Below, one piece after another: positions 1,946-64,000 of a stretch of DNA of 64,000 nucleotides (its first letter is position 1; every line of letters starts with the position of its first letter). Origin of the DNA: Cenarchaeum sp. (GTDB lineage Archaea; Thermoproteota; Nitrososphaeria; Nitrososphaerales; Nitrosopumilaceae). Under the pieces are notes generated by a model. The model was not told the origin of the DNA. It did no database searches and worked only from the letters and a program-made list of their open reading frames with translations. The stretch lies in assembly GCA_965242695.1 (NCBI GenBank), contig CBDESU010000001.1:1696001-1760000 (forward strand). The letters are read 5' to 3'. The translations under genes were made by a program, and so were the position numbers.

Positions 1946-2800
1946 TTGGTTGCGGATGAGAAGAGGGCCGTCCCGCTCATGGGCGCGTACGAAGAGTACG
2001 TGCGGCGCATCGACGGCGCCCTAGAGTCCGAGCTGTCCCTGTACGCGCAGTCCGAGTTCATCGCCCCCCTGAGGTACGCCCTCGGCGGCGGCAAGCGCAT
2101 CCGGCCCATAATCCTCGTCCTTGCCGCCGAGAGCGTCGGGCGCGCCGACGGCAACGCCTACACCGCATCGTGCGCCGTCGAGCTGCTCCACACCGAGTCG
2201 GTCATACACGACGACATCATCGACAACGAGACGGACCGGAGGGGAGGCGACCCGTTCCACATAAAGTACGGGTACAACGCGAGCATACTCACCGGCGACT
2301 TTGTCCTCGGCCTCATACTGAGCATATCGTCAAAGCTCAACCGCCCGCGCATCACAAAGGACCTGGCCACGACGGCCATGCTCATGAGCGAGGGCGAGCT
2401 CATCGAGGAGCGCCTCGAGTCGAGCGGCGACGTCACGTTCGACGACTACCTAAAGGTCATCGAGTACAAGACTGCCACCGCGTTCGAGGTGGCCGCCAGG
2501 ATAGGCGCCGTCATCGGCGGCGGCACGGACGAGCAGGTGGAGTCGCTCACAAAGTTCGGCCGCAACATCGGCATCGCGTACCAGATCAGGGACGACCTGA
2601 CCGACTGGAAGAACGAGGACAAGCTCTTCAACCTGCTCATCAAGAAGAGCAACGATCCGCGCGACGTGTTCGACCGGATGGAGGACATGCTAAAGTCGTA
2701 CTCGGGCAGGGCGCGTGCCGGGCTGAGGGGCGTGCCCGAGGGGCCCGCCAGGGACAACCTCGAGGCGCTCGTCGAGTTTACGATGTACAGCAAGCCGTGA
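1946..2800 (+). CDS. Polyprenyl synthetase (geranylgeranyl diphosphate synthase-like)
   Basis: GGKRIRP, HDDIID..RRG (FARM), KTA and YQIRDD motifs; start TTG 1946 or ATG 1979, because the track start overlaps the tRNA. Confidence 0.9.
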   Translation: MVADEKRAVPLMGAYEEYVRRIDGALESELSLYAQSEFIAPLRYALGGGKRIRPIILVLAAESVGRADGNAYTASCAVELLHTESVIHDDIIDNETDRRGGDPFHIKYGYNASILTGDFVLGLILSISSKLNRPRITKDLATTAMLMSEGELIEERLESSGDVTFDDYLKVIEYKTATAFEVAARIGAVIGGGTDEQVESLTKFGRNIGIAYQIRDDLTDWKNEDKLFNLLIKKSNDPRDVFDRMEDMLKSYSGRARAGLRGVPEGPARDNLEALVEFTMYSKP

Positions 2801-2808
2801 CGGAGCGG

Positions 2809-4314
2809 CTACGGCGATCCGGCCGCGATGGGCACAAACACGGGCGCGGCGCTCTCGGCGAGCTGTATGAGCGGCTCGGGGTACACGCCGAACCCGACCA
2901 TGAACAGGATCGAGAATATCATTACGGCGACGACCGGCCGCGGCTCCGACCTTACCCTCTTTTGGTCCTCGCCCTCAAAGTACATCTTGCGGATTATCCA
3001 GCCATAGTACGCCAGCGACAGGGCGCTGTTGAGGACGCCGGCTACCGCAAGCCACGGGGCCCAGCCGGCCGCGGCCGACGAGACCTGCCCGGCGTCGAGC
3101 GCGCCGCCAAACAGCATCAGCTTGCTCCAGAACCCGTTGAGCGGCGGCACGCCGGCGAGTGCGAGCATCGAGATCACCAGGCCGAGCGACGTGATCGGCA
3201 TGCGCCGCCCCAGGCCGCGCAGCTTGTCCAGGTGCGTGACGGCCAGGGCCGCCGCAATGCCGGCGAGCGCGATGAACGCGGCGCCCTTCATGACGGCGTG
3301 GTTGAGCACGTGCAGCATGGCACCCGCCATCCCGACGCCCGAGTAGGGCGCTATAGACAGGCCGATGAGGATGTAGCCGGCGTGCCCGATGCTAGAGTAC
3401 GCCAGCATGCGGGCGAGGTTCTTTTGCATGATGGCAGCCACGTTGCCGACCGTCATCGTCATGACGGCGATGATGCCCAGCGCCAGCGTCCAGTCGAGCT
3501 GGAGCGCGGCCGCGCCGATCAGGACGACGCGCAGCGCGGCGGCAAAGCCGGCCTTCTTCGTGCCGGCGGCGAGCAGCGCCGCCACCGGCGGGGGCGAGCC
3601 CTCGTACGCGTCGGGCAGCCACATGTGGAACGGGACCAGGCCCATCTTGAAGCCGAACCCCGCGATGAACAGGCCGGCGGCGAGCAGTCCGAGGGGCAAA
3701 AACTCGGCGTCGAGCGCCGCAAAGCCGGCGAGGACCTCGGCGATGTTCGTAGAGCCGGTCAGCCCGTACGCTATCGAGATGCCGTATATGATGAGCGCCG
3801 ATGCGAGGGCCCCGAACAGAAAGTACTTTATGGCAGCCTCGTTCGAGCTCGGGTTGCGCTTGTGGAAGGCGGCGAGCACGTACGTCGGTATGCTCATCAG
3901 CTCCCAGGCGACGAACAGCATGACAAGGTCCGTCGAGTACGCGACGAGGACCATCCCTATCGCGGATAGCAGTATGAGGGAATAGTAGACGGCGTGGTGC
4001 CGCATGCGGCGCATGTAGGTTATCGAGCCGGCCGTCGTCATTATGGCGACGATGAGCATCGCGATCGCAAAGAAGCCGCCGAACATGTCGTCCGACACGA
4101 CGTCCTCGGAGAGCAGTACAGACGGCATGACCTGCTCGGTGGCCACCTGGTACACGGCGTACCCGATGGCCGCCACGAGCGCCCCGAACGCGATCGCCGC
4201 GTAGAACGAGTTGGACCCGCGCTCCTTGCGCGCGATGCTGATCAGCGGCAGTACGACGCCGACTGTCCCGAGTATGGCCACGATGACCATCGGCGTAGAG
4301 GTCGCCTCGATCAT
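2809..4314 (-). CDS. nuoN: NADH-quinone oxidoreductase subunit N
   Basis: EAAIKYF, FKMGLVPFHMWLPDAYEG and RMLAYSSIGHAGY motifs; last gene of the nuo operon. Confidence 0.95.
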   Translation of the reverse strand: MIEATSTPMVIVAILGTVGVVLPLISIARKERGSNSFYAAIAFGALVAAIGYAVYQVATEQVMPSVLLSEDVVSDDMFGGFFAIAMLIVAIMTTAGSITYMRRMRHHAVYYSLILLSAIGMVLVAYSTDLVMLFVAWELMSIPTYVLAAFHKRNPSSNEAAIKYFLFGALASALIIYGISIAYGLTGSTNIAEVLAGFAALDAEFLPLGLLAAGLFIAGFGFKMGLVPFHMWLPDAYEGSPPPVAALLAAGTKKAGFAAALRVVLIGAAALQLDWTLALGIIAVMTMTVGNVAAIMQKNLARMLAYSSIGHAGYILIGLSIAPYSGVGMAGAMLHVLNHAVMKGAAFIALAGIAAALAVTHLDKLRGLGRRMPITSLGLVISMLALAGVPPLNGFWSKLMLFGGALDAGQVSSAAAGWAPWLAVAGVLNSALSLAYYGWIIRKMYFEGEDQKRVRSEPRPVVAVMIFSILFMVGFGVYPEPLIQLAESAAPVFVPIAAGSP

Positions 4315-4423: not shown

Positions 4424-6505
4424 CTACATCAAAAGTATCAGCACCACGAACAGCAGCCCCGCCCCGAACACGAACAGGTACGACTGCGAGACGCCCGTCT
4501 GCGTGCCCTGCACGACCCGGGCCCCCCACCCGGCGGCGCGCTCAAAGCCCACGTTCATGCCGCGGTCGATCGCGGTCTTTTCAAAGTAGCGGAAGACGCC
4601 GCGGGCGACCCACAGCGGGGCGACGACGAATGCCCAGTATACCATCGCGTTGAGGTACCACCTGTTGAGGAGCAGCTTGTGGATTCCGTAGAAGACGGGG
4701 TTTGACGCGACGAACCGCGCGGGGTCGACCCAGCGGCCGATGTAGAACACGTACCCGAGCCCAATGCCGACCGAGAACGCGACGAGCGACGCCCCGAGCG
4801 CGACGGGGTTTATCCCGGCGAGCATGCCGCCGAGGGCGCCCGCGGCATAGTCCTCGTGGGGCGTGTGTATGCCGAACGAGTCCTCTAGGTACACCTCGAA
4901 CAGGTGGTGCATGCCGCCCTCGACGGACAGTCCGATCAGGCCGAGCCCGATGGTGAACGCGGCGAGTATGCCGTACGGCGCCCACATGGACAGGGGCGCC
5001 TCGTGGACCTGGCGGCCGGACGCCTCCATCCTGCGCACGTGCTCGCTCTTTGGCCCAAAGAAGACCATGCCGATCATGCGCGTCGTGTAGAACGCGGTAA
5101 TGACCGCCGCCAGGACGGCCATCGAGAATATGGGCAGGGCCCAGGCGTTCGACGACTCGTAGACGGCGGCAAATATGGCGTCCTTGCTCCAGAACCCCGT
5201 CGTGATGAACGGCGCGCCCATCAGGGCCAGGCCGGCGGCCCACATGAACGCGTGCGTCTTGCGCATGTGCCTGCGCAGCCCGCCCATGTCCGTCATGAAC
5301 CGCGAGCCGACCACGTGTAGCAGCGAGCCGGCGGCCATGAACAGCGACGCCTTGAACATGGCGTGCGAGACGAGGTGGAAGAAGCCGGCCGTGTACCCGT
5401 CGACGAACCTCTCGGACAGGCCGGCCACGCCGAGGGCCATCATCATGTAGCCGATCTGCGAGCCCGTAGAGTAGGCGAGGACCTTTTTGATCTCGGGGTT
5501 GGCCATGCCCTGCGTGGCGAGCAGGAGTGCCGTGACGGCGCCGACCCACGCGATGACCTCGAAGAACTGGACCGCGAGTATGCCGGCGGCCGAGAGGGCA
5601 AAGAACAGCGGGCCGAGGCGGGCGACAAGGAACACGCCTGCCTTTACCATGGTCGCCGCGTGTATGAGGGCAGAGACGGCCGTCGGGCCGGTCATCGCCT
5701 CTAGCAGCCACTCGTTGAGCGGGAACTGCGCCGACTTGCCGATCGCGCCGCCGAACAGCAGGACGGCGGCGGGCACGAGCAGGCCGGCCGCGGACATCTC
5801 GACGGCCCACGCCGTCTCGGTCGCAAGCTCGCGGAAGCCGAACGTGCCGGCGTACGCGAATATGAGCAGCATGCCGGCGATCATCATGACGTCGCCGACC
5901 TTTGTCATGATGAACGCCTTCATGCCCGCGTGCGTCGGCGAGTAGTAGTCTAGCAGGCCGAGGACGCTGCGCCCCTCGCGGCCGACGTGGTCCTTTTTCT
6001 TGTCGCGGTACCAGAAGCTGATGAGCGCGTACGAGGCGAGCCCGACCCCCTCCCAGCCGAAGAAGACCTGGAGCAGGTTGTCGGACAGGACGATCAGCTG
6101 CATCGAGCCGATGAAGAACGACATCCAGAACCAGAACCGCACCAGGCTGCGGTCGCCCTTCATGTAGCCGGTGCTGTATATCAGGATGAGCAGCGATATC
6201 CACGCGACCACGTTGGCCATGATGACGGCGAGCGGGTCGGCCAGGACGCCGGCCTTTAGGCCGATCGCGTCGATCCACCCGATCTGGTCGTGGACCTCGC
6301 GCGCCTCTAGCGCGCCGCCGAGCAGCGAGGCGGCCGAGACGGCGCTTGCCAGGGCCAGCGCGATCGCGACGTAGCCGGTGGCCCTGACAGACGCCTTGCC
6401 GACGGCAGGTATTATCAGGGCGGCGACGAACGGCAGTATCCACACGAGCCAGGCGCCCTGCGCGCCTAGGTCGAACGGGAGGGCAAACGCCGCCTCTGCC
6501 GCCAT
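4424..6505 (-). CDS. nuoL: NADH-quinone oxidoreductase subunit L
   Basis: GWEGVG, GKSAQFPL, AMTGPTAVSALIHAATMVKAG and HAMFKA motifs. Confidence 0.95.
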   Translation of the reverse strand: MAAEAAFALPFDLGAQGAWLVWILPFVAALIIPAVGKASVRATGYVAIALALASAVSAASLLGGALEAREVHDQIGWIDAIGLKAGVLADPLAVIMANVVAWISLLILIYSTGYMKGDRSLVRFWFWMSFFIGSMQLIVLSDNLLQVFFGWEGVGLASYALISFWYRDKKKDHVGREGRSVLGLLDYYSPTHAGMKAFIMTKVGDVMMIAGMLLIFAYAGTFGFRELATETAWAVEMSAAGLLVPAAVLLFGGAIGKSAQFPLNEWLLEAMTGPTAVSALIHAATMVKAGVFLVARLGPLFFALSAAGILAVQFFEVIAWVGAVTALLLATQGMANPEIKKVLAYSTGSQIGYMMMALGVAGLSERFVDGYTAGFFHLVSHAMFKASLFMAAGSLLHVVGSRFMTDMGGLRRHMRKTHAFMWAAGLALMGAPFITTGFWSKDAIFAAVYESSNAWALPIFSMAVLAAVITAFYTTRMIGMVFFGPKSEHVRRMEASGRQVHEAPLSMWAPYGILAAFTIGLGLIGLSVEGGMHHLFEVYLEDSFGIHTPHEDYAAGALGGMLAGINPVALGASLVAFSVGIGLGYVFYIGRWVDPARFVASNPVFYGIHKLLLNRWYLNAMVYWAFVVAPLWVARGVFRYFEKTAIDRGMNVGFERAAGWGARVVQGTQTGVSQSYLFVFGAGLLFVVLILLM

Positions 6506-8176
6506 CTACGGCGCACCTCCCATTGCGGCCGCCGCGGCCGGCTGCGCGGCCCCGACGACCCCCTCCATGTACGGGACTATCCCCTGGAGGAATATGTCGG
6601 GGTATATTCCAAGGACGACGGTGAAGCCTGCCAGGACCATCATCGGGGCCGTCATGTACCAGTTCGCCTCCTTGACGTGCGCTATCTTTTCGGGGATCTT
6701 GCCAAAGAAGACGCGCTTTAGCATCCACAGCATGTACGACATGGTGAGGGCCGTGGCGACCAGGCCGAGCCCGAACGTGGCGAACCGCAGCGTAGAGCCC
6801 TCGGCGATGGCGGTCTCGATCGCGCCGTAAAAGACGATCCACTCGCCCATGAACCCGCTCGTCGGGGGCACGCCCATGATGGTCAGGGCCCCGATGACGG
6901 CGCACACGGCCGTTATCGGCATGCGGCCGGCCAGCCCGCCGAGCTTTGAGATGCTGCGCGTGCCGACCTGCACGATGATGACGCCGGCCGTCATGAAGAG
7001 CAGCCCCTTGCCGAGCGCGTGCGTAATGTACATCATCTCGGCGCCGGCCAGCCCTAGCGCAGAGTACGTGCCGATGCCGAACAGCAGGTACCCCATCTGG
7101 CTCACGCTAGAGTATGCGAGCATCCGCTTGAGGTCGTCCTGCATGAGGGCCATGGCGCCGCCGTATATCATCGTGACAAGCCCCCACACATGGAACCATA
7201 TCGCAAGCTCGGCGTACTGCATGGGCAGGAACTCTACGATGAGGCGGAATATGCCGTACGCGCCGATCCCGATCATGACGGGCGAGAGGAGCGCGCTGAT
7301 CGGCGTCGGCGCCGCGCCGTGCACCCAGGGCAGCCATATGTGGAACATGAACGCGGCCAGCTTTACGCCTAGGCCGATGGCAATGGCCACGGCGGCGAGC
7401 ATGACGACGTCGGCCGGGATCGCCGCCTCGTCGATGTCGGCAAAGTCGTAGCTGCCCACGCTCAGCCCGATCGTGAGGAAGCCGAGCAGAAGGACGACGG
7501 CGCCGACGTGCGTCCAGAACAGGAACATGAGCGCGATGCGCCGGCGCGGCCCGTCGCCCCAGAACGCGACCAGGAAGAAGCCGGGTATGAGCATGACCTC
7601 GAAGAAGATGTAGAACTCGATGAGGTTCGTGGCCAAGATGGTGCCGAGCATGCCCATGGCGAACACGAGGAACAGCGCATAGTAGACGCCGGACTGGTGG
7701 TTTACGTACCTCTCGAGATCGGCCTTGTCGTGCGGCGGCGCGGCCGCACCGGCGTAGCCGCCGCCCTGCGCACCGAGGCTCTGGCCGGAGCGCGGCGATG
7801 CGCCGGCCGCCGCCTCGGCCTGCAGGGCCCCGCCGCCGTGCCTTGCATGGTACATTTCGTGGAACTTGTGGATCATGTACGGCTTTGAGTACAGGGCCAG
7901 GATGGCGCTGAGCACGTAGATCATGATGGCAAACGGCGATGCCAGGCCGTCCATGAGCAGGCCGAACTCGCCGAACATCGTGGTCCACGGGTAGTGCTCC
8001 TCGTACGTGCCGCCCTCTAGCGCGACCATTACGACGAGGACCGAGCAGTACAGCAGTATGCCAAACGTCAGCCACGTCGCCGCAGTCGGGCCGGCCCGCC
8101 GCCCCACAAGGTACGCAACGGGCGAGAGCAGGAGCGGTATGAAGACGGCCTGCAGAAGAGAGTACTCCATCGCCAT
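6506..8176 (-). CDS. nuoM: NADH-quinone oxidoreductase subunit M
   Basis: FYIFFE, FHIWLPWVHGAAP, DLKRMLAYSSVSQMG and PPTSGFMGE motifs; Gly/Ala-rich internal insertion. Confidence 0.95.
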   Translation of the reverse strand: MAMEYSLLQAVFIPLLLSPVAYLVGRRAGPTAATWLTFGILLYCSVLVVMVALEGGTYEEHYPWTTMFGEFGLLMDGLASPFAIMIYVLSAILALYSKPYMIHKFHEMYHARHGGGALQAEAAAGASPRSGQSLGAQGGGYAGAAAPPHDKADLERYVNHQSGVYYALFLVFAMGMLGTILATNLIEFYIFFEVMLIPGFFLVAFWGDGPRRRIALMFLFWTHVGAVVLLLGFLTIGLSVGSYDFADIDEAAIPADVVMLAAVAIAIGLGVKLAAFMFHIWLPWVHGAAPTPISALLSPVMIGIGAYGIFRLIVEFLPMQYAELAIWFHVWGLVTMIYGGAMALMQDDLKRMLAYSSVSQMGYLLFGIGTYSALGLAGAEMMYITHALGKGLLFMTAGVIIVQVGTRSISKLGGLAGRMPITAVCAVIGALTIMGVPPTSGFMGEWIVFYGAIETAIAEGSTLRFATFGLGLVATALTMSYMLWMLKRVFFGKIPEKIAHVKEANWYMTAPMMVLAGFTVVLGIYPDIFLQGIVPYMEGVVGAAQPAAAAAMGGAP

Positions 8177-8178
8177 GC

Positions 8179-8484
8179 CTATCCCCTCAGGCTCCTAAAC
8201 TCGGCAACGTCGACGTTGCGGTACATGCGGTAGGCCACTATGATCAGCGACAGGCCGACGGCGACCTCGGCCGCCGCGATGCCGATCGAGAACAGTGCCA
8301 GCGTCTGCCCCCCGCTGTCGGGCAAAAACCTGGCGAACGCGACAAGGTTGAGGTTTGCCGCGTTGATTACGATCTCGACGGCAAAGAGCATGCGGATGAA
8401 GTTGCGCTTTACGGACAGGCCGTATATGCCGATGGCCAGGAGTGCAACGGATACGAGTGCAAAGTCCACCAGCTCTCCGGCCAT
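8179..8484 (-). CDS. nuoK: NADH-quinone oxidoreductase subunit K
   Basis: EIVINAANLN and AAAEVAVGL motifs. Confidence 0.93.
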   Translation of the reverse strand: MAGELVDFALVSVALLAIGIYGLSVKRNFIRMLFAVEIVINAANLNLVAFARFLPDSGGQTLALFSIGIAAAEVAVGLSLIIVAYRMYRNVDVAEFRSLRG

Positions 8485-8489
8485 GCGAG

Positions 8490-9446
8490 TCACACCCCTC
8501 CGCCCGTGCCGCCGCTGCCGCCGGACGCGCCAGGCTTGTCGTCAGAGGGCGGCGAAGACTCTTGATCGGCCGCACCGTCCCCGCCGGCATCGGCATCGGC
8601 GTCTGGCGCGGCAGCCGGCTTGTCGGCAGGCTTGGGCGCAGCATCGTCGGGCGCGGCAGCCGGCTTGTCGGCAGGCTTGGGCGCAGCATCGTCGGGCGCG
8701 GCCGCCGGCTTGTCGGCAGGCTTGGGCGCAGCATCGTCGGGCGCGGCCGCCGGCTTGTCGGCAGGCTTGGGCGCAGCATCGTCGGGCGCGGCCGCCGGCT
8801 TGTCGGCAGGCTTGGGCGCAGCATCGTCGGGCGCGGCAGGCTTCGCAGGCGGGGGCGCCTCCGCCGCCTCCGGCGCGGCGCCCGCGGCCGCCGCAGGAGC
8901 CACGGCCAAGGCCGCCCCGTCCCCGCCGCCGCCGCCCTCGCCGTCGTCATCCTCGTACTCGTCCTCGCGGCGGGCAAGCACAAGGGCCCCCGTCACCGAC
9001 GAGGCGAGTATCAGGCCCATCAGTACGAGCGCCGGCCAGTAGTACGTGAGCAGGTCCTCGCCGATATCCTGGAACTCTACCGGCGGCGAGTCCGTCCACA
9101 CCTGCTTGAGGCCCGAGTCTATGACGATCGCCCCCAGGGCCAGCATTACGACGAGCATGAGCCCGATCCCCGCGTACCGCCGCCGCACGTCCTCGACCTT
9201 TGTGAAGATCAGCTGGCGGCGCACGAGCATTACCGTGAACAGTATGAGGACGGCTATCGATCCGACGTACACCGCGATCTGGAAGAGTGCCACGAACGGG
9301 GCGTCGAGCATGAGGAAGAACCCCGCGATCCCGCCGAGCGTCCCCATGAGGGCGAGCGACCCGTACACGAGCGAGCGCAGCTCGAGGGCGGCTATCGCGG
9401 AGCCTATCGTGAGGACCGACAGGGCCACGAACGCTGCGTCAGCCAT
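8490..9446 (-). CDS. nuoJ: NADH-quinone oxidoreductase subunit J with a long low-complexity C-terminal tail
   Basis: QIAVYVGSIAVLILF NuoJ core, followed by about 150 aa of Ala/Pro/Asp/Lys repeats. Confidence 0.92.
   Translation of the reverse strand: MADAAFVALSVLTIGSAIAALELRSLVYGSLALMGTLGGIAGFFLMLDAPFVALFQIAVYVGSIAVLILFTVMLVRRQLIFTKVEDVRRRYAGIGLMLVVMLALGAIVIDSGLKQVWTDSPPVEFQDIGEDLLTYYWPALVLMGLILASSVTGALVLARREDEYEDDDGEGGGGGDGAALAVAPAAAAGAAPEAAEAPPPAKPAAPDDAAPKPADKPAAAPDDAAPKPADKPAAAPDDAAPKPADKPAAAPDDAAPKPADKPAAAPDDAAPKPADKPAAAPDADADAGGDGAADQESSPPSDDKPGASGGSGGTGGGV
8601..8838. repeat. 45-bp coding tandem repeat, about 5 copies (DDAAPKPADKPAAAP), in nuoJ
   Basis: Near-identical 45-bp units visible in the sequence. 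Confidence 0.9.
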
Positions 9447-59583: not shown

Positions 59584-60672
59584 CTAGCCTGCCGCGGGGG
59601 CGGGGGCGAGCTCGGACGCGTCGATCTCGAACGAGCCCTCCACAAAGTACTCTACGCGCGTCTTCTTGAACTCGCGCGCGCTGAACAGTATCTCGTACTC
59701 GTCGACTCCGATCTGGTCGCGGATGGACGCGGCCGTCCGCCTCGCCTCGTCCTCGGACCTGCAGTGGATCATCGAGAATACGTTGTACTTCCAGTCGGGG
59801 TACACGGGGCGCTGGTAGCAGTGGCTGACCTGGGGGAACGAGCCGAGCCTGGAGCCGACGTCCTCGACCATCCCGTCGGGCACCCTCCACACGATCATCC
59901 CGTTCGCGGTGAATCCGGCGTCGCGGTGCCGGAGGATCGCCGCGTAGCGGCGCATCACCCCGATCTCCTCGTAGCGGCGCAGCCTCTCGAACACCTCGTC
60001 CTCGGACATGCCGAGGGCGCGCGCGGCGGGGAGGAAGGGGCGGTCCTCGACGGGCAGGTCCTTTTGCAGCTGCCGCACGAACTCCCTGTCGGATTCGGAC
60101 GGGTCGAACTCGGCGCGCTCGATGCGCCTCTCCGGCTCGGACGGGGCGACATCGCGCTTCTTCGACTCTACCATTTCGAGTCGCACGCCGATCTTGAAGA
60201 GACGTATGGTCGGCAGCATGCGCGTGCGGGCGACCCCGCGTATGCGGCCGAGGCGGCCCACCTCGGACTTTAGGTCGGCGCCCGGCGGGACGGCTAGCGT
60301 AAACCACAGGTTGAACGCGTGGCGGCGCTCGTAGTTGTGGCTCACGCCGGGGTGGGCGTTGACGAGCTCGGCGACGCGCTCTAACCTGCCCGGCTCGACC
60401 TGCATGGCCACTAACGAGCTCTTGTAGCCGAGGCGCCGCGTGTCGAATATGGCGCTCAGTTGCCGCAGCACGCCGGCCCGCTTGAGCCGCGATATGCGCG
60501 ACTTTACCTCTTCGGTGCCGGTGCCAAAGCGGGACGCGAGCACGTCGTAGGGGCGCGCCTCGAGCGGGAACGACCACTGTATCTCGTTGAGGATCTCGCG
60601 GTCAAGGTCGTCCAGCTCCGCCGGCTGCGCGGCCGCCCGGTGCGGCGCGGCGGATGCGAGGGCCTGCGTCAC
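59584..60672 (-). CDS. ahbAB: Fused siroheme decarboxylase AhbA/AhbB (NirDL/Lrp-like)
   Basis: Two Lrp-like units: VSHNYER..FNLWFT and VSHCYQR..YNVFSMIH. Confidence 0.88.
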   Translation of the reverse strand: MTQALASAAPHRAAAQPAELDDLDREILNEIQWSFPLEARPYDVLASRFGTGTEEVKSRISRLKRAGVLRQLSAIFDTRRLGYKSSLVAMQVEPGRLERVAELVNAHPGVSHNYERRHAFNLWFTLAVPPGADLKSEVGRLGRIRGVARTRMLPTIRLFKIGVRLEMVESKKRDVAPSEPERRIERAEFDPSESDREFVRQLQKDLPVEDRPFLPAARALGMSEDEVFERLRRYEEIGVMRRYAAILRHRDAGFTANGMIVWRVPDGMVEDVGSRLGSFPQVSHCYQRPVYPDWKYNVFSMIHCRSEDEARRTAASIRDQIGVDEYEILFSAREFKKTRVEYFVEGSFEIDASELAPAPAAG

Positions 60673-60819
60673 GGCGCGGCGGCGGAGGGTGCGATTAAAA
60701 GTGTAGCGCGCAGCCAGGGCGGCAAAGGGGCCCCGGCGCAGCGGGCGGCGCCGGCAGGGGGCATGTAGGCGCAAATAGGTAGCCATACATTAAATAGACC
60801 AAAAACTACCGCACTGGTG

Positions 60820-61236
60820 ATGGCAGGGTCTAGGCGCAGGCGCAGTCGCAGTCGCAGGCGTGGCTGGTACGATCTCCCCCCGCTGAGGTACCCGATCACG
60901 TCCGCGATGGTCCGCACGAGCATGCTCGGCGTGTTCGTAAGGGTGGCGGTGCTGAAGACCTGGGTCAGGCGGCGCGACCCCGTGTCGCAGACGGCCGTTG
61001 TCACGCAGGGCACCACCTCGCTCGAGCAGTTCACGAGGCTGAGCCTCGAGGAGGACCTCGACGAGAGGGGCTGGGAGGGCGGCGAGACCCACGCGGTCGT
61101 GGGCGTCAGGGGCGAGGACGGGGACGTCAGGGTCAGCAAGTCCCGCCTCGCCGCCTTTGGGCGCCCGTTTCAGAGCGTCAGGCCGATCCGCGAGATGGTC
61201 GAAGAGTATGATCACAAGGCCCTAGTGAGTGCATAG
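60820..61236 (+). CDS. Probable N-terminal (HEPN-like) part of a frameshifted HEPN-TPR protein
   Basis: TTAAATA upstream; TSLEQFTR and FQSVRPI helical motifs; the next frame continues with IDELEDDLEDMFGLRHGLTH. Confidence 0.55.
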   Translation: MAGSRRRRSRSRRRGWYDLPPLRYPITSAMVRTSMLGVFVRVAVLKTWVRRRDPVSQTAVVTQGTTSLEQFTRLSLEEDLDERGWEGGETHAVVGVRGEDGDVRVSKSRLAAFGRPFQSVRPIREMVEEYDHKALVSA

Positions 61237-61262
61237 ACGAGCTCGAGGACGACCTTGAGGAC

Positions 61263-62891
61263 ATGTTCGGACTGCGGCACGGCCTGACGCACGCCCTGCC
61301 CGGCGGCCGGTTTGATGCGGAAAAGCCGCTGCGCCTCGTCTGGCGCGTCATGAGGGCCGGCATGGAGGGCCGCCCGCTGTACGTGGTCGCGGCCCTGCTC
61401 GTCGAGGCGTCCGTAATGGAGGCTGCCGGCAGGGCTGACGGCGCGCGCCGGGCCGCCGAAGAGGCCCTCGAGGTATGCGATGGAGTCCCAGAGGGAATGC
61501 AAGACGGGGACGGCGGCGGCGGCGATGCCCGGCAGGCCCGGGTGTGCAGGGCCTACGCCCTTGCACGCCTCCGCCGCACGGACGAGGCGGAGGCGGCCTA
61601 CAGGGAGGCGGCCGAAAAGAGCCCGCGCGACGTCCTGCCCCTTGTCGGCATGGGGCACCTCTTGGTGCAGGACGGCCGCCCGGAGGAGGCCGTCGAGTGG
61701 TATGCAAGGGCCGTGGCCGTCGATCCGGACCACGTGGCGGCGCGCACGAGCATGGGGCATGCGCTGGCCGTGGTCCGCGGCGCCGACGGGACAAAGTCCG
61801 TGCAGTGCTACCAGGACGCGATGCGCGGCGGCATCGAGGACGTGTCGCTCCGCGCGGGGTACGGCACCGCGCTGGCGATGATGGGCCTCTACGAGGAGGC
61901 TGCCGAGCAGTACCGCAGGGCAATCGAGCTGGATCCGGCCGATGCGGCCGCTTGCGTCGGGCTCGGAAACGCGCTTGCTGCGCTCAAGAGGCACGGCGAG
62001 GCCGCGGGGATGTACGAAGAGGGGATTCGGCTCGGCGCCGCCGCTGTGCCCGTGCGCGACGAGGTATTGGGCGAAGAGTCCGAGGCCGGAATCTTTGCGC
62101 TTGGTCTGGGCGGGGCCGCGGCGCACCGCGGGCTCGGAAACGCGCTGATTGAGACGGGCAGGCCGGAAAGGGCGGCAGTCGTCCTAGGCAGGGCCGCCTC
62201 GCTGGATCCCGGCAGCCTCGAGGCGCAGTCGGGGCTCGGGAGGGCGCTCTACATGTGCGGGCGGTACGAGGAGGCGGTCCGCGCAGGGCAGCGCGCCGTC
62301 GAGATCGACGCGGGCAGCCTGGAGGCGCAGGTGGGGCTCGGGAGGGCGCTCTACATGTGCGGGCGGTACGAGGAGGCGGTCCGCGCAGGGCAGCGCGCCG
62401 TCGAGATCGACGCGGGCAGCCTGGAGGCGCAGGTGGGGCTCGGGAGGGCGCTCTACATGTGCGGGCGGTACGAGGAGGCGGTCCGCGCAGGGCAGCGCGC
62501 CGTCGAGATCGACGCGGGCAGCCTGGAGGCGCAGGTGGGGCTCGGGAGGGCGCTCTACAAGTGCGGGCGGTACGAGGAGGCTGTCCGCGCAGGGCAGCGC
62601 GCCGTCGAGATCGACGCGGGCAGCCTGGAGGCGCAGGTGGGGCTCGGCGATGTGCTCTACAAGTGCGGGCGGTACGAGGAGGCTGTCCGCGCAGGGCAGC
62701 GCGCCGTCGAGATCGACGCGGGCAGCCTGGAGGCGCAGGTGGGGCTCGGGAGGGCGCTCTACAAGTGTGGGCGGTACGAGGAGGCCGTGGCCGCCTACAG
62801 GTCAGCCCTGGCCCTTGATGCCGGCAACCGCGAGGCGCGCAGGGGGCTGTGGGCTGCACTAGGACGATGGGAAAAGTATGCGGGGAGGTAG
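61263..62891 (+). CDS. Tetratricopeptide repeat protein with an N-terminal RxxxxH motif
   Basis: Many 34-aa TPRs (GLGRALY..GRYEEA); begins MFGLRHGLTH. Confidence 0.88.
   Translation: MFGLRHGLTHALPGGRFDAEKPLRLVWRVMRAGMEGRPLYVVAALLVEASVMEAAGRADGARRAAEEALEVCDGVPEGMQDGDGGGGDARQARVCRAYALARLRRTDEAEAAYREAAEKSPRDVLPLVGMGHLLVQDGRPEEAVEWYARAVAVDPDHVAARTSMGHALAVVRGADGTKSVQCYQDAMRGGIEDVSLRAGYGTALAMMGLYEEAAEQYRRAIELDPADAAACVGLGNALAALKRHGEAAGMYEEGIRLGAAAVPVRDEVLGEESEAGIFALGLGGAAAHRGLGNALIETGRPERAAVVLGRAASLDPGSLEAQSGLGRALYMCGRYEEAVRAGQRAVEIDAGSLEAQVGLGRALYMCGRYEEAVRAGQRAVEIDAGSLEAQVGLGRALYMCGRYEEAVRAGQRAVEIDAGSLEAQVGLGRALYKCGRYEEAVRAGQRAVEIDAGSLEAQVGLGDVLYKCGRYEEAVRAGQRAVEIDAGSLEAQVGLGRALYKCGRYEEAVAAYRSALALDAGNREARRGLWAALGRWEKYAGR
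62211..62822. repeat. 102-bp near-identical TPR-coding tandem repeats, 6 copies
   Basis: Units start at 62211, 62313, 62415, 62517, 62619 and 62721. Confidence 0.93.
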
Positions 62892-63103
62892 CGTACGCGC
62901 GGGCAGGGCACAGGAAATTTGCGGCGCGGAAGATTGCAGAAGGCGGCGCGCGCTGCAGCTCAGGCCGCAAAGACGGCGAGTTGCAGATCCCGCATCCCAA
63001 GGACGGCGCCGCCTGCGGTCGGTTGGGCAACAGCGGCGGCGCTGGCGCCAAGATCAAGTCGCGGGCCGCGGCAGCGCAAAAAATGCAGCGTACGGACGCC
63101 CGC

Positions 63104-63403
63104 CTAGCACGAGATGCGCGCCATGTACCTTGCATAGTCCCGCGCAAACGCCCTGTGGATGCCCACCTCCCTCTGCCACTTTAGCCAGCGTTGCAGATCG
63201 CGCTCGGCTTCCCGGTCTACCTCCACCTCCATCCTGCGCTCAATCCTGCGCTCCCTTGCTCGCTCCATGTACTCTTCTACCACGCTGTACTGGTACTCGG
63301 TAGGATTGTCCGAATCGATGGCCTCCTGGGCCAGGGCATCGAGCTGCTCGTAGCTCATCTTGCTGGGATCCGTTGCGGGTGGCTCTTTCTTTGTCGCGCT
63401 CAC
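63104..63403 (-). CDS. Small charged helical hypothetical protein (about 99 aa)
   Basis: GTG at 63403 about 25 nt below TTTTATAT; DPSKMSYEQLDALAQEAIDSDNPTEYQYSVVEEYMERARERRIERR. Confidence 0.6.
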   Translation of the reverse strand: MSATKKEPPATDPSKMSYEQLDALAQEAIDSDNPTEYQYSVVEEYMERARERRIERRMEVEVDREAERDLQRWLKWQREVGIHRAFARDYARYMARISC

Positions 63404-63773
63404 GAATGGGGACGGCGGTCGGGCCCATATAAAATATTGGTGTAGCCCGGTGCCTGAATGGCACACATTCGGGTCGGGCAAGCGATGCGCACGTCCGGGG
63501 CGGCCGTGGCGCAGTTGATGTCAGACTCGAATGTCTACCCAGCACGGTCCGCCGGCCCCGTCTCGCCCTCTGCCAACCCTCCGTCGAGCTTGCCCCGCCG
63601 GTGACCGTGCATGGTGGACCTCGGAGACAGTCCGCGCCGGCAGGGTGCAGTTTCCCATGCAGAACGGCAAAGGCTGCGGCCAATGCGCAAGAGACGCCGG
63701 AGATCCGGGCGTGCGCCGGCGCGCCGGCGCGCCGCACATCCCCTTAATACGGCCGGCGCCGCGGCCGACAGGC

Positions 63774-64000
63774 ATGATCGTCGACCTGCGAGTGGCCGGC
63801 CGCGCCGCCGTAGTGATCGGGGCCGGCGCCGAGGCGCTCAAGAGGACCAAGGCGCTACTAGCCGGAGGGTGCGCCGTGCGCGTCATCGCCGCCGCCGACC
63901 GGACGGGCGGCAGGCTCGCAGAGATGGCCGCTTCTGGCGCAATCACGCTAGAGCTGGGGGGCCGCATCGACTCGGCGGCAACGATCATCGCGGAGCTCGC
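63774..64000 (+). CDS. Precorrin-2 dehydrogenase/sirohydrochlorin ferrochelatase (SirC/CysG N-terminal-like), partial
   Basis: MIVDLRVAGRAAVVIGAGAEALKR Rossmann-like start; near ahbAB; runs off the right edge. Confidence 0.82.
   Translation, partial: MIVDLRVAGRAAVVIGAGAEALKRTKALLAGGCAVRVIAAADRTGGRLAEMAASGAITLELGGRIDSAATIIAEL

Follow-up and report, generated by a model that had tools for sequence, protein, structure and literature searches.

The window analysed here, a stretch of 64,000 nucleotides from Cenarchaeum sp. (contig CBDESU010000001.1, forward strand), contains near its end a 2.7-kb cassette between ahbAB and a SirC-like gene: a HEPN-TPR gene lying in two pieces on the forward strand and, convergent to it, a small partner gene that we call S1. 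The first piece, open reading frame 1 (ORF1; 60817-61236, +), starts with GTG, has an internal ATG at 60820 and ends at a TAG stop (61234-61236). The second, the TPR ORF (61263-62891, +; 542 aa), is offset from ORF1 by one base in frame. On inspection of the sequence the TPR frame is open from 61212, after a TGA at 61209-61211, and reads SQGPSECIDELEDDLEDMFGLRHGLTH, with ...SECIDELEDDLEDMFGLRHGLTH... as part of it. Both frames share an overlap of 25 nt (61212-61236) and amount to 690-691 codons when joined. The initial annotation, made from the letters of the window, had described this one-base offset, the TPR frame open upstream of its ATG, the overlap and a joined length of about 690 aa, all of which hold. 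Long spurious ORFs are common in the window because of its base composition of 67.8% GC. In the ORF1 frame, however, GC content at the third codon position (GC3) is 0.92-0.98 over 60860-61219, with GC1 > GC2, and from about 61220 it is the TPR frame whose third position is GC-rich (0.87-0.98), a frame switch that the many other ORFs listed for the window lack. A Pfam scan assigned 0 families to ORF1 (E <= 0.1 or 1) and only TPR families to the second ORF (TPR_2 E 2.1e-61, 10 stretches), and ordinary annotation would, as had been anticipated, recognise nothing beyond the TPRs.

Relatives align across both pieces. Paralogs of ORF1 occur in its own genome (G000) and in one congener (G004), each within a longer open frame of 408-921 aa, and their translations run from a continuous N-domain through ...ALRECLxxM..DLxxLFDLRHxLVHSLG... 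into the TPRs. Aligned with these paralogs, ORF1 matches as far as ...HKAL (61224) and the TPR frame resumes at ECIDEL... (61227); at the break site (61225-61227) two bases (61225-61226) stand in place of the relatives' whole codon, and the last 4 codons of ORF1 together with the TAG form an out-of-frame tail. An intact metagenomic protein of 548 aa, P0012, is colinear with both pieces, its residues 7-128 aligning to ORF1 residues 9-136 (56% identity, E 4e-36) and its residues 143-536 to the TPR-frame piece (61% identity, E 4e-137), and P0026, a near-identical ortholog, reads through the break site without a shift. The first piece of the broken gene (60817-61236, +) thus comprises an Arg-rich N-terminal extension and about the first 115 HEPN residues (RYPIT..., LEQFTR, FQSV). 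The second (61227-62891, +; called ATG at 61263, stop at 62889-62891) carries the TPR array, preceded by the remainder of the HEPN domain up to about 61400. This remainder includes the R-x4-H motif, R-H-G-L-T-H (61275-61292, +), which is thereby cut off from the first part of the domain. The colinearity with P0012 and the paralog alignment support the original proposal that a one-base frameshift has divided a single HEPN-TPR gene, and unsplit homologs, for which the initial annotation had suggested a search, are present in the form of the paralogs, P0012 and P0026.

The break was also looked up in public assembled contigs. The Logan contig of X1 (depth 396, possibly the source run) shows 0 differences from the window over 1001 nt, and a contig of X4, from another study (depth 6.5), shows 0 differences over 60700-61411. 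X5, another sample, has one extra base behind 61227 (depth 272.6 of 272.6), and so has X6, which comes from a third study and is a sponge metagenome (depth 41.5 of 41.5); in both the frame is open across this site. Because the contigs of X1 and X4 carry the break and those of X5 and X6 are one base longer, the frameshift is a true strain polymorphism. A sequencing or assembly error in a gene that is really intact could be suspected in a high-GC genome in which several family members look frameshifted; the independent k-mer assembly of X1, the agreeing contig of X4 and the site itself, which is not a long homopolymer, let us discount it almost entirely. A contig joint from 60946 to 61371 (419 other letters between) derives from paralog contigs.

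Programmed ribosomal frameshifting or transcriptional slippage would restore the full-length protein, and the 25-nt frame overlap, with the shift just upstream of the catalytic motif, could be read in this way. Such regulated recoding, also raised in the initial annotation, finds no support: a -1 shift would be needed and no X XXY YYZ heptamer or homopolymer >3 was seen by eye in 61212-61236, the natural intact alleles differ by just one base, and other copies or alleles are broken at other positions. We consider it exceedingly improbable. That the two ORFs are instead made as two separate working proteins would agree with the coding-like GC3 kept in both and with the ATG at 61263, but a recent lesion would also keep high GC3, the cut goes through the HEPN domain ahead of R-x4-H, no relative shows a split here and the frame is unbroken in other strains, which makes a split gene very improbable. 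It is practically certain, in our judgement, that the two ORFs are halves of one HEPN-TPR gene, disrupted because a single base has been lost.

Because the break leaves R-x4-H separated from the preceding three quarters of the HEPN domain, the window copy is most likely without an active enzyme, and the gene is very probably an inactive pseudogene in the window strain. The lesion looks recent, since no damage is seen in the remaining frame, the promoter-like box or the partner gene. Breaks also occur elsewhere in the family. The X6 allele, unbroken at 61227, has a second extra base behind 60889 that leads to a stop in the codon before the conserved YPIT and is thus broken at its N-terminus, and the P0026 gene shifts frame farther on, after ...AAEKSP. 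Further split copies lie in G000 at 309387-310151/308776-309567, 513714-514934/512977-513717 and 1844967-1845736, and G004 has at least 5 split N-domains as well as open frames, at L002 and L003, that finish in out-of-frame TPR tails. Toxin inactivation may be the cause of the break in the window, but most copies in G000 are unbroken.

HEPN domains are known as metal-independent endoRNases whose active site is made up of the R-x4-H residues and is usually shared between the two subunits of a dimer. A profile of the N-terminal domain, searched against 1.84 billion representatives, matched only 115 proteins at E <= 1e-3, 66 at <= 1e-10 and 19 at <= 1e-30, with the domain at the N-terminus in most of the 115. 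Three near-invariant motifs characterise this family, (L/V)EQFxR, FQ(N/S) and RHxxxH(T/S). The glutamate is conserved in 108 of 108 representatives and the glutamine in 97 of 107; of the 96 that extend over the motif, 92 have both the arginine and the histidine, so that the early conserved E and the R-x4-H singled out in the initial annotation are near-invariant family features. The residue after the arginine is polar, as expected of the R-x4-6-H motif of HEPN domains (H in 89, N in 7 representatives), and R and H are >= 90% conserved in 88 sequences. TPR_2 was found in 67 of 88 longer members and PF18735 (HEPN_RiboL-PSP) at E <= 1e-3 in 38. When relatives were scanned singly, 3/12 exceeded the PF18735 cut-off of 28.4 bits (30.9, 34.4 and 31.4 bits); the matches above the cut-off are low-GC members and cover profile positions 23-190 of 191. 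Aligned by hhalign to the PF18735-matching members, the G000 copies gave 99.5% probability (E 7e-23, 169 columns) with the motifs in register, which upholds at family level the earlier guess of a RiboL-PSP-like domain.

Structure prediction points in the same direction. In A2, an alignment of nine N-domains from G000, E51, R132 and H137 are invariant. The AlphaFold2 model built on A2, which represents a paralog N-domain rather than the joined domain of the window, reached a predicted local distance difference test score (pLDDT) of 88.0 and a predicted template modelling score (pTM) of 0.83. Its N-terminal ~170 residues are helical with a beta-hairpin insert, as in the HEPN fold, and R-x4-H lies at the end of a long helix (112-137) before the last helix (146-162). 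In a VIA-align comparison with 48,161 chains, the best 16 rows were all HEPN entries (Z 7.3-9.3, root-mean-square deviation (rmsd) 2.9-4.7, 112-133 residues aligned) and included the Roquin N-terminus, AF_0298, TT1696, SO_3166, the sacsin HEPN domain, HepT-type toxins, AbiA, HI0074, YutE, ST0689, Csm6 and LsoA. The entries 2hsb, 3o10, 7ae2, 8xdj, 1wol and 4nqf are HEPN by title. Roquin, SO_3166, AbiA, Csm6, LsoA, HI0074 and YutE are HEPN proteins, in part according to PMC3710099. In a second structure comparison the best 19 rows were again all HEPN entries (Z 7.2-9.1).

Three points speak against this assignment. Z values of 7-9 can be reached by chance for helical bundles according to the tool's own note; Foldseek returned E values of only 0.5-2.5, though HEPN proteins are among its matches; and no G000 copy directly matches a HEPN or defence model in Pfam, PADLOC or NCBIfam, so that the link to the family is transitive. 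The nine paralog N-domains gave 0 HEPN matches in Pfam at E <= 1, and 0/9 matched PADLOC-DB 2.0 at E <= 1. An NCBIfam sigma-factor match at 0.066 and the sole profile match among PDB sequences, a designed helical protein (E 0.0033), were rejected as noise. Taken alone, the fold is moderate evidence for HEPN. With the family-level profile link and the conserved motifs, we accept a HEPN fold and RiboL-PSP-like kinship with high confidence; the high-GC copies have simply diverged too far for detection from single sequences. By analogy with characterised HEPN domains, RNase activity in the intact copies is probable.

The remainder of the gene is repetitive. The array of the joined gene has about 13 TPRs, and within it a tandem repeat (62211-62785, +) comprises 5.6 copies of a 102-bp unit that are 97% alike, each encoding one 34-aa TPR. 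At the other end, a run of CGCAG(G/T) hexamers (60826-60865) encodes the Arg/Ser-rich N-terminal extension (RRRRSRSRRR). The hexamer tract varies in length among strains, with 6 and 12 bases fewer at 60841 in the X5 and X6 contigs, both in frame. The HEPN domain and the TPRs are connected by a linker, the Gly/Asp run DGDGGGGD, which is variable in length and composition; in X6 it has G>A at four sites 3 nt apart (61513-61522), all second codon positions.

The small partner gene S1 (63104-63403, -; 99 aa) starts with a GTG at 63403 and stops at 63104-63106; the longer ORF at this place has GC1/2/3 of 0.61/0.45/0.74. Its product has the conserved MS(V/A)TK N-terminus of the family, starting MSATKK, and a charged helix at its centre; its C-terminus, also conserved, reads ...VGIHRAFARDYARYMARISC. 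Across the S1 family the proteins start MSVT(K/R)Q, carry short tandem repeats in their charged middle part and end in QIMVxNFxxFRREYxxMxxRSC. Neighbour mapping of all copies showed that small convergent ORFs lie downstream of most HEPN-TPR copies and are homologous to each other: the S1 of the window matches the ORFs that follow two of the paralogs (E 5e-12 and 5e-10), through which three further groups are connected. In a tblastn search of the 3.9-Mb genome, S1 turned up at 15 places. All 15 are situated 71-2323 bp downstream of a HEPN-TPR gene and in convergent orientation to it, often with 2-4 copies in tandem. A second small family, S2, lies behind more diverged copies and was found at 7/7 places beside a HEPN-TPR gene, so that both families show the strict linkage of adjacent genes that is typical of type II toxin-antitoxin (TA) systems. 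S1 or S2 is present at 14/20 loci, and the same convergent arrangement is seen in G004. What was at first noted only as a small convergent gene is therefore a conserved partner of HEPN-TPR.

Pfam has no family for S1 or S2, the protein Atlas gave no usable S1 match, and the model of S1 is a single long helix (pLDDT 79, pTM 0.39). Of the 121 genomes in the taxonomic family, just two have S1, namely G000 (13 matches) and G004 (6). Similarity of the HEPN domains tracks that of the partners (Mantel r 0.73, reached by 1/2000 permutations), which shows duplication of the cassette as a whole and is not in itself proof of binding, as co-duplication of neighbours alone would yield this value. The pairing of toxin and antidote is further weakened by the 6/20 loci without an S1 or S2 homolog, by more distant HEPN-TPR family members that are without S1, and by the convergent orientation, which is unusual for TA pairs. 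Most copies are part of a two-gene cassette of HEPN-TPR and, downstream on the opposite strand with a promoter-like box of its own, one to four copies of the gene for a small, charged, all-helical protein.

Some loci are arranged in particular ways. Behind one HEPN-TPR gene of G000 (contig C1, 2149617-2151479) there are four tandem, near-identical S1 copies in ~500-bp units, two of which lie in different reading frames of that repeat. At 1171991-1181010 of the same contig, four diverged HEPN-TPR genes are clustered within 9 kb, and behind each of them is a small convergent gene of the S2 type. The HEPN-TPR copies of G002 are without S1; just upstream, on the same strand, is an acidic ORF of 49-57 aa (MDW(D/E)AESAKY...EFVLVEDDD), which may be a different partner. 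These acidic ORFs lie at 7015-7167 and 8747-8920 (-) of locus L051 and at 3145-3294 (+) of L052, and repeats resembling insertion sequences flank the genes.

Both genes of the cassette are preceded by A/T-rich boxes. TTAAATA, an archaeal TATA-like box (60790-60796, +), lies 20 nt 5' of the GTG at 60817 and 23 nt 5' of the ATG at 60820, a distance that implies a leaderless transcript, and it may be the promoter of the HEPN-TPR gene; a TAAATA- or TATA-type box is found at about the same distance in 7/10 HEPN-TPR starts inspected, the window included. TTTATAT (63427-63433, -) lies 23 nt 5' of the S1 start codon, and a (T/C)(T/C)ATAT-type box occurs at the same distance in 8/9 S1 starts inspected, the ninth being TTATGT. 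Boxes 20-23 nt before both starts would fit leaderless archaeal transcripts from separate promoters. Directly 3' of the S1 stop, a short hairpin with a T-run (63087-63100, -) is a possible terminator by consensus match only, 2 such sites having been found vs 0.7 expected.

An intact pair, consisting of a HEPN-TPR protein of 717 aa (G000 C1, 2151897-2154092) and a partner of 123 aa, was modelled as a complex with an 11-row alignment for each. The ipSAE score was 0.62 (runs 0.62, 0.63 and 0.00) vs 0.03 for the best of 3 controls, and the score mark used is reached by 58/80 solved complexes and 2/110 mismatched pairs. In the predicted interface, TPR residues 325-610 contact residues 55-94 of the partner, its repetitive central helix. 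Several features of the model counsel restraint: one of the three runs scored 0.00, contact agreement among the runs is low (at least 2%), models readily place a charged helix in a TPR groove, and the interface involves the repetitive middle of S1 and not its conserved C-terminus. The pLDDT of the partner in the complex is at least 52. The model supports binding of S1 to the TPRs without demonstrating it, and we regard such binding as somewhat likely.

The host genome G000 has archaeal SSU and LSU rRNA (small and large ribosomal subunit) and archaeal AmoA and thus belongs to an ammonia-oxidising archaeon. Beyond what was noted initially, the locus is one member of a lineage-specific family of about 20 copies. 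Matches to the A2 profile were found in 7/121 genomes of the taxonomic family, with 21 in G000 (about 20 loci), 23 and 12 in its congeners G004 and G002, respectively, and one in each of four others; two small genomes of the same genus had 0 matches. A sample of 301 genomes from across the phylum gave matches in just two, G000 and another member of its family; outside that family 0/257 matched. This is a lineage-specific expansion in large, high-GC genomes. A search with ORF1 at near lengths returned only the window's own 109-aa protein call, one with region 1-170 of a full paralog only P0002, and an A6-based search of metagenome contigs one 1.4-kb contig without usable context. Locus L031, suggested by a single-protein search of genome contigs, was rejected as spurious since the match runs out of frame over an SDR-type gene.

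Of the sampled words of the stretch, 39-48% are found in each of five sponge metagenome runs, and no RNA run is among the listed runs that contain it. The presence of window DNA in sponge metagenomes and an expansion limited to the large genomes of the genus could indicate that these are 'eukaryotic-like' TPR proteins for dealing with the sponge host, with the HEPN-like head as a non-catalytic scaffold and S1 as a chaperone or cargo. A scaffold would not need near-invariant R, H, E and Q residues, however; the N-terminus is itself HEPN, no signal peptide or membrane segment was seen by eye, and single copies also occur in low-GC relatives beside transposase-, integrase-, Fic- and KAP NTPase-like ORFs (by eye). 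We therefore find a role in host interaction improbable.

The cassette of the window is flanked by genes of heme metabolism. Upstream lies the fused AhbA/AhbB-type siroheme decarboxylase (59584-60786, -), with two NirdL-like helix-turn-helix domains and AsnC_trans_reg2, and downstream the start of a SirC-like precorrin-2 dehydrogenase (63531-64000, +). In G002, ahbAB and the SirC-like gene are divergent neighbours ~0.8 kb apart, followed by hemA- and hemB-like ORFs (by eye), and this adjacency agrees with the initial view that the gene and the small convergent gene were inserted between them; the same region is arranged differently in G004, G001 and G003. Around 8 copies, 55 ORFs of 90-1300 aa were called and 42 of them scanned, 12 S1-type or S1-region ORFs and one other having been dropped; 20/42 scanned without a family. 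The 42 are mostly housekeeping genes such as AmoC, SRP54, EF-2, Topo VI and arginine decarboxylase, together with five TPR-only proteins, two DUF5678 and one GmrSD_N/DUF262.

Cassettes that sit singly among AmoC, SRP54, EF-2, Topo VI and heme genes, each gene with its own promoter-like box, would also be compatible with a housekeeping or regulatory RNase family for RNA processing or turnover, in which the TPRs recruit substrates or partners and no conflict system is involved. Such a family would not be expected to be missing from the genus's small genomes and from 114/121 family genomes searched, nor to consist of ~20 fast-diverging copies of which several are broken; TPR units and partner repeats that vary in number fit accessory or conflict genes better. 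A housekeeping function thus also seems rather unlikely.

Further neighbours are worth recording. The GmrSD_N gene (DUF262, ParB-like nuclease) is divergent to one HEPN-TPR copy (L070, 8940-10355; G000 C1, 2154439-2155857) and recalls the 'operon with ParB' given for RiboL-PSP-HEPN in the available part of PMC3710099. Two 90%-identical DUF5678 genes stand on both sides of one cassette (L067, 4517-4858 and 9385-9744; G000 C1, 590513-590857 and 595381-595743). Distant low-GC relatives have a single copy amid transposase-, integrase-, Fic-like and KAP NTPase-like ORFs, recognised from motifs by eye. In G010 (28% GC; L049), the HEPN-TPR gene lies between two Fic-like ORFs (2033-3142 and 5745-6833, +), and an ORF with a KAP-type P-loop motif (6938-8332, -) comes after the Fic-like ORF (both by eye).

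Overall, the explanation that we favour, with some reservation, is a recently broken RiboL-PSP-like HEPN-TPR gene in a two-gene cassette that has expanded within the lineage of a sponge-associated ammonia oxidiser. In intact copies the HEPN domain would act as a metal-independent RNase, while the groove of the TPR solenoid would take up the central helix of the small cognate protein. Binding of the partner could restrain the RNase like an antitoxin, or link it to a signal, and loss or displacement of the partner would free RNA cleavage and lead to growth arrest, as in TA and abortive-infection systems. In the window copy the reading frame of the enzyme is interrupted before the catalytic motif; this copy is most likely dead, with the partner gene surviving.

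A conflict or TA-like role, suggested by analogy, is plausible, though we stop just short of expecting it, and HEPN-TPR may act as a sensor-RNase in defence. When paralogs are compared, the ratio of nonsynonymous to synonymous substitution rates (dN/dS) ranges over 0.5-0.85 in the HEPN domain and over 0.14-0.94 in S1, rough values in which codon bias may depress dS. High dN/dS, variable repeat numbers and frequent breaks fit a conflict module, but also a dispensable family, and the several broken copies in particular tell against the former. So does the setting: only 1/42 scanned neighbours is defence-like (GmrSD_N), and the cassettes are scattered singly, with no classical defence island.

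In its fullest form, the idea would be that of an undescribed archaeal two-gene conflict cassette in which a TPR clamp on a cognate antidote or bait helix gates a RiboL-PSP-type RNase and the TPR units and partner repeats diversify together. Some 20 copies of it would then reside in one genome, a sizeable part of the 'eukaryotic-like' TPR proteins of sponge-associated ammonia oxidisers would serve in immunity or addiction, and the breaks would reflect the cost of toxic copies. As a whole this remains speculative and is rather doubtful. If the cassette functions in the proposed manner, an RNase, a TPR clamp and a repeat-helix partner would constitute a new architecture for archaeal TA and abortive-infection biology, where few such systems have been tested, the ~20 diverged cognate pairs of one genome would offer a natural specificity series, and counting TPR genes as symbiosis factors would call for caution. 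Independent of this, a family that domain scans report merely as TPR gains a HEPN nuclease-type head and a linked partner. For the window locus the practical message is modest: it should be annotated as a pseudogene with an intact small partner gene.

Neither this HEPN-TPR family nor its partner was found described in the literature covered, which includes the available parts of PMC3710099, PMC6697440, PMC7848895 and PMC6563490; arCOG supplements, which lie outside this coverage, may list the genes as TPR proteins. Likewise, no paper tying the TPR proteins of sponge Thaumarchaeota to HEPN was found among the texts available in part. The closest known system is RiboL-PSP-HEPN (PF18735), which is the same HEPN subfamily by profile and has a conserved R-x4-H. 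According to the accessible table of Anantharaman et al. 2013 (PMC3710099), RiboL-PSP-HEPN is fused to endoRNase L-PSP, lies in an operon with ParB and occurs in bacteria only, and the same source, as far as available, describes it as distantly related to AbiD/AbiF. The family described here differs from it by the fusion to TPRs, the occurrence in ammonia-oxidising archaea and the new small helical partner. L-PSP is not among the 25 commonest Pfam families in the 88 members, and the L-PSP fusion and ParB operon are not the context of the present genes, which makes them less typical members and does not affect the kinship.

HepT-MntA provides the best structural matches (6m6u, Z 9.1, rmsd 2.9, 114 aligned; 5yep, Z 8.6; 7ae2, Z 8.4) and is a system in which a HEPN RNase toxin is restrained by the product of the adjacent gene, as might by analogy be the case for the cassette. 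Unlike HepT-MntA, however, no MNT nucleotidyltransferase is present here, the genes are convergent and not co-transcribed, and the partner is a helix of 99-239 aa that is predicted to bind the TPR array and not to modify the HEPN domain. LA2681 shares the architecture of HEPN plus TPR but belongs to a different HEPN subfamily, and no match to it is among the 25 commonest Pfam families of the 88 members. A final comparison concerns the TPR 'eukaryotic-like proteins' of sponge symbionts. In the parts available of PMC7848895 and PMC6697440, sponge-associated Thaumarchaeota have high GC and are enriched in TPR proteins, which are read as host-interaction factors, and domain scans would count the present HEPN-TPR genes among them. 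Their HEPN nuclease-type head and linked partner point to an RNA-directed role inside the cell and not to host mimicry.

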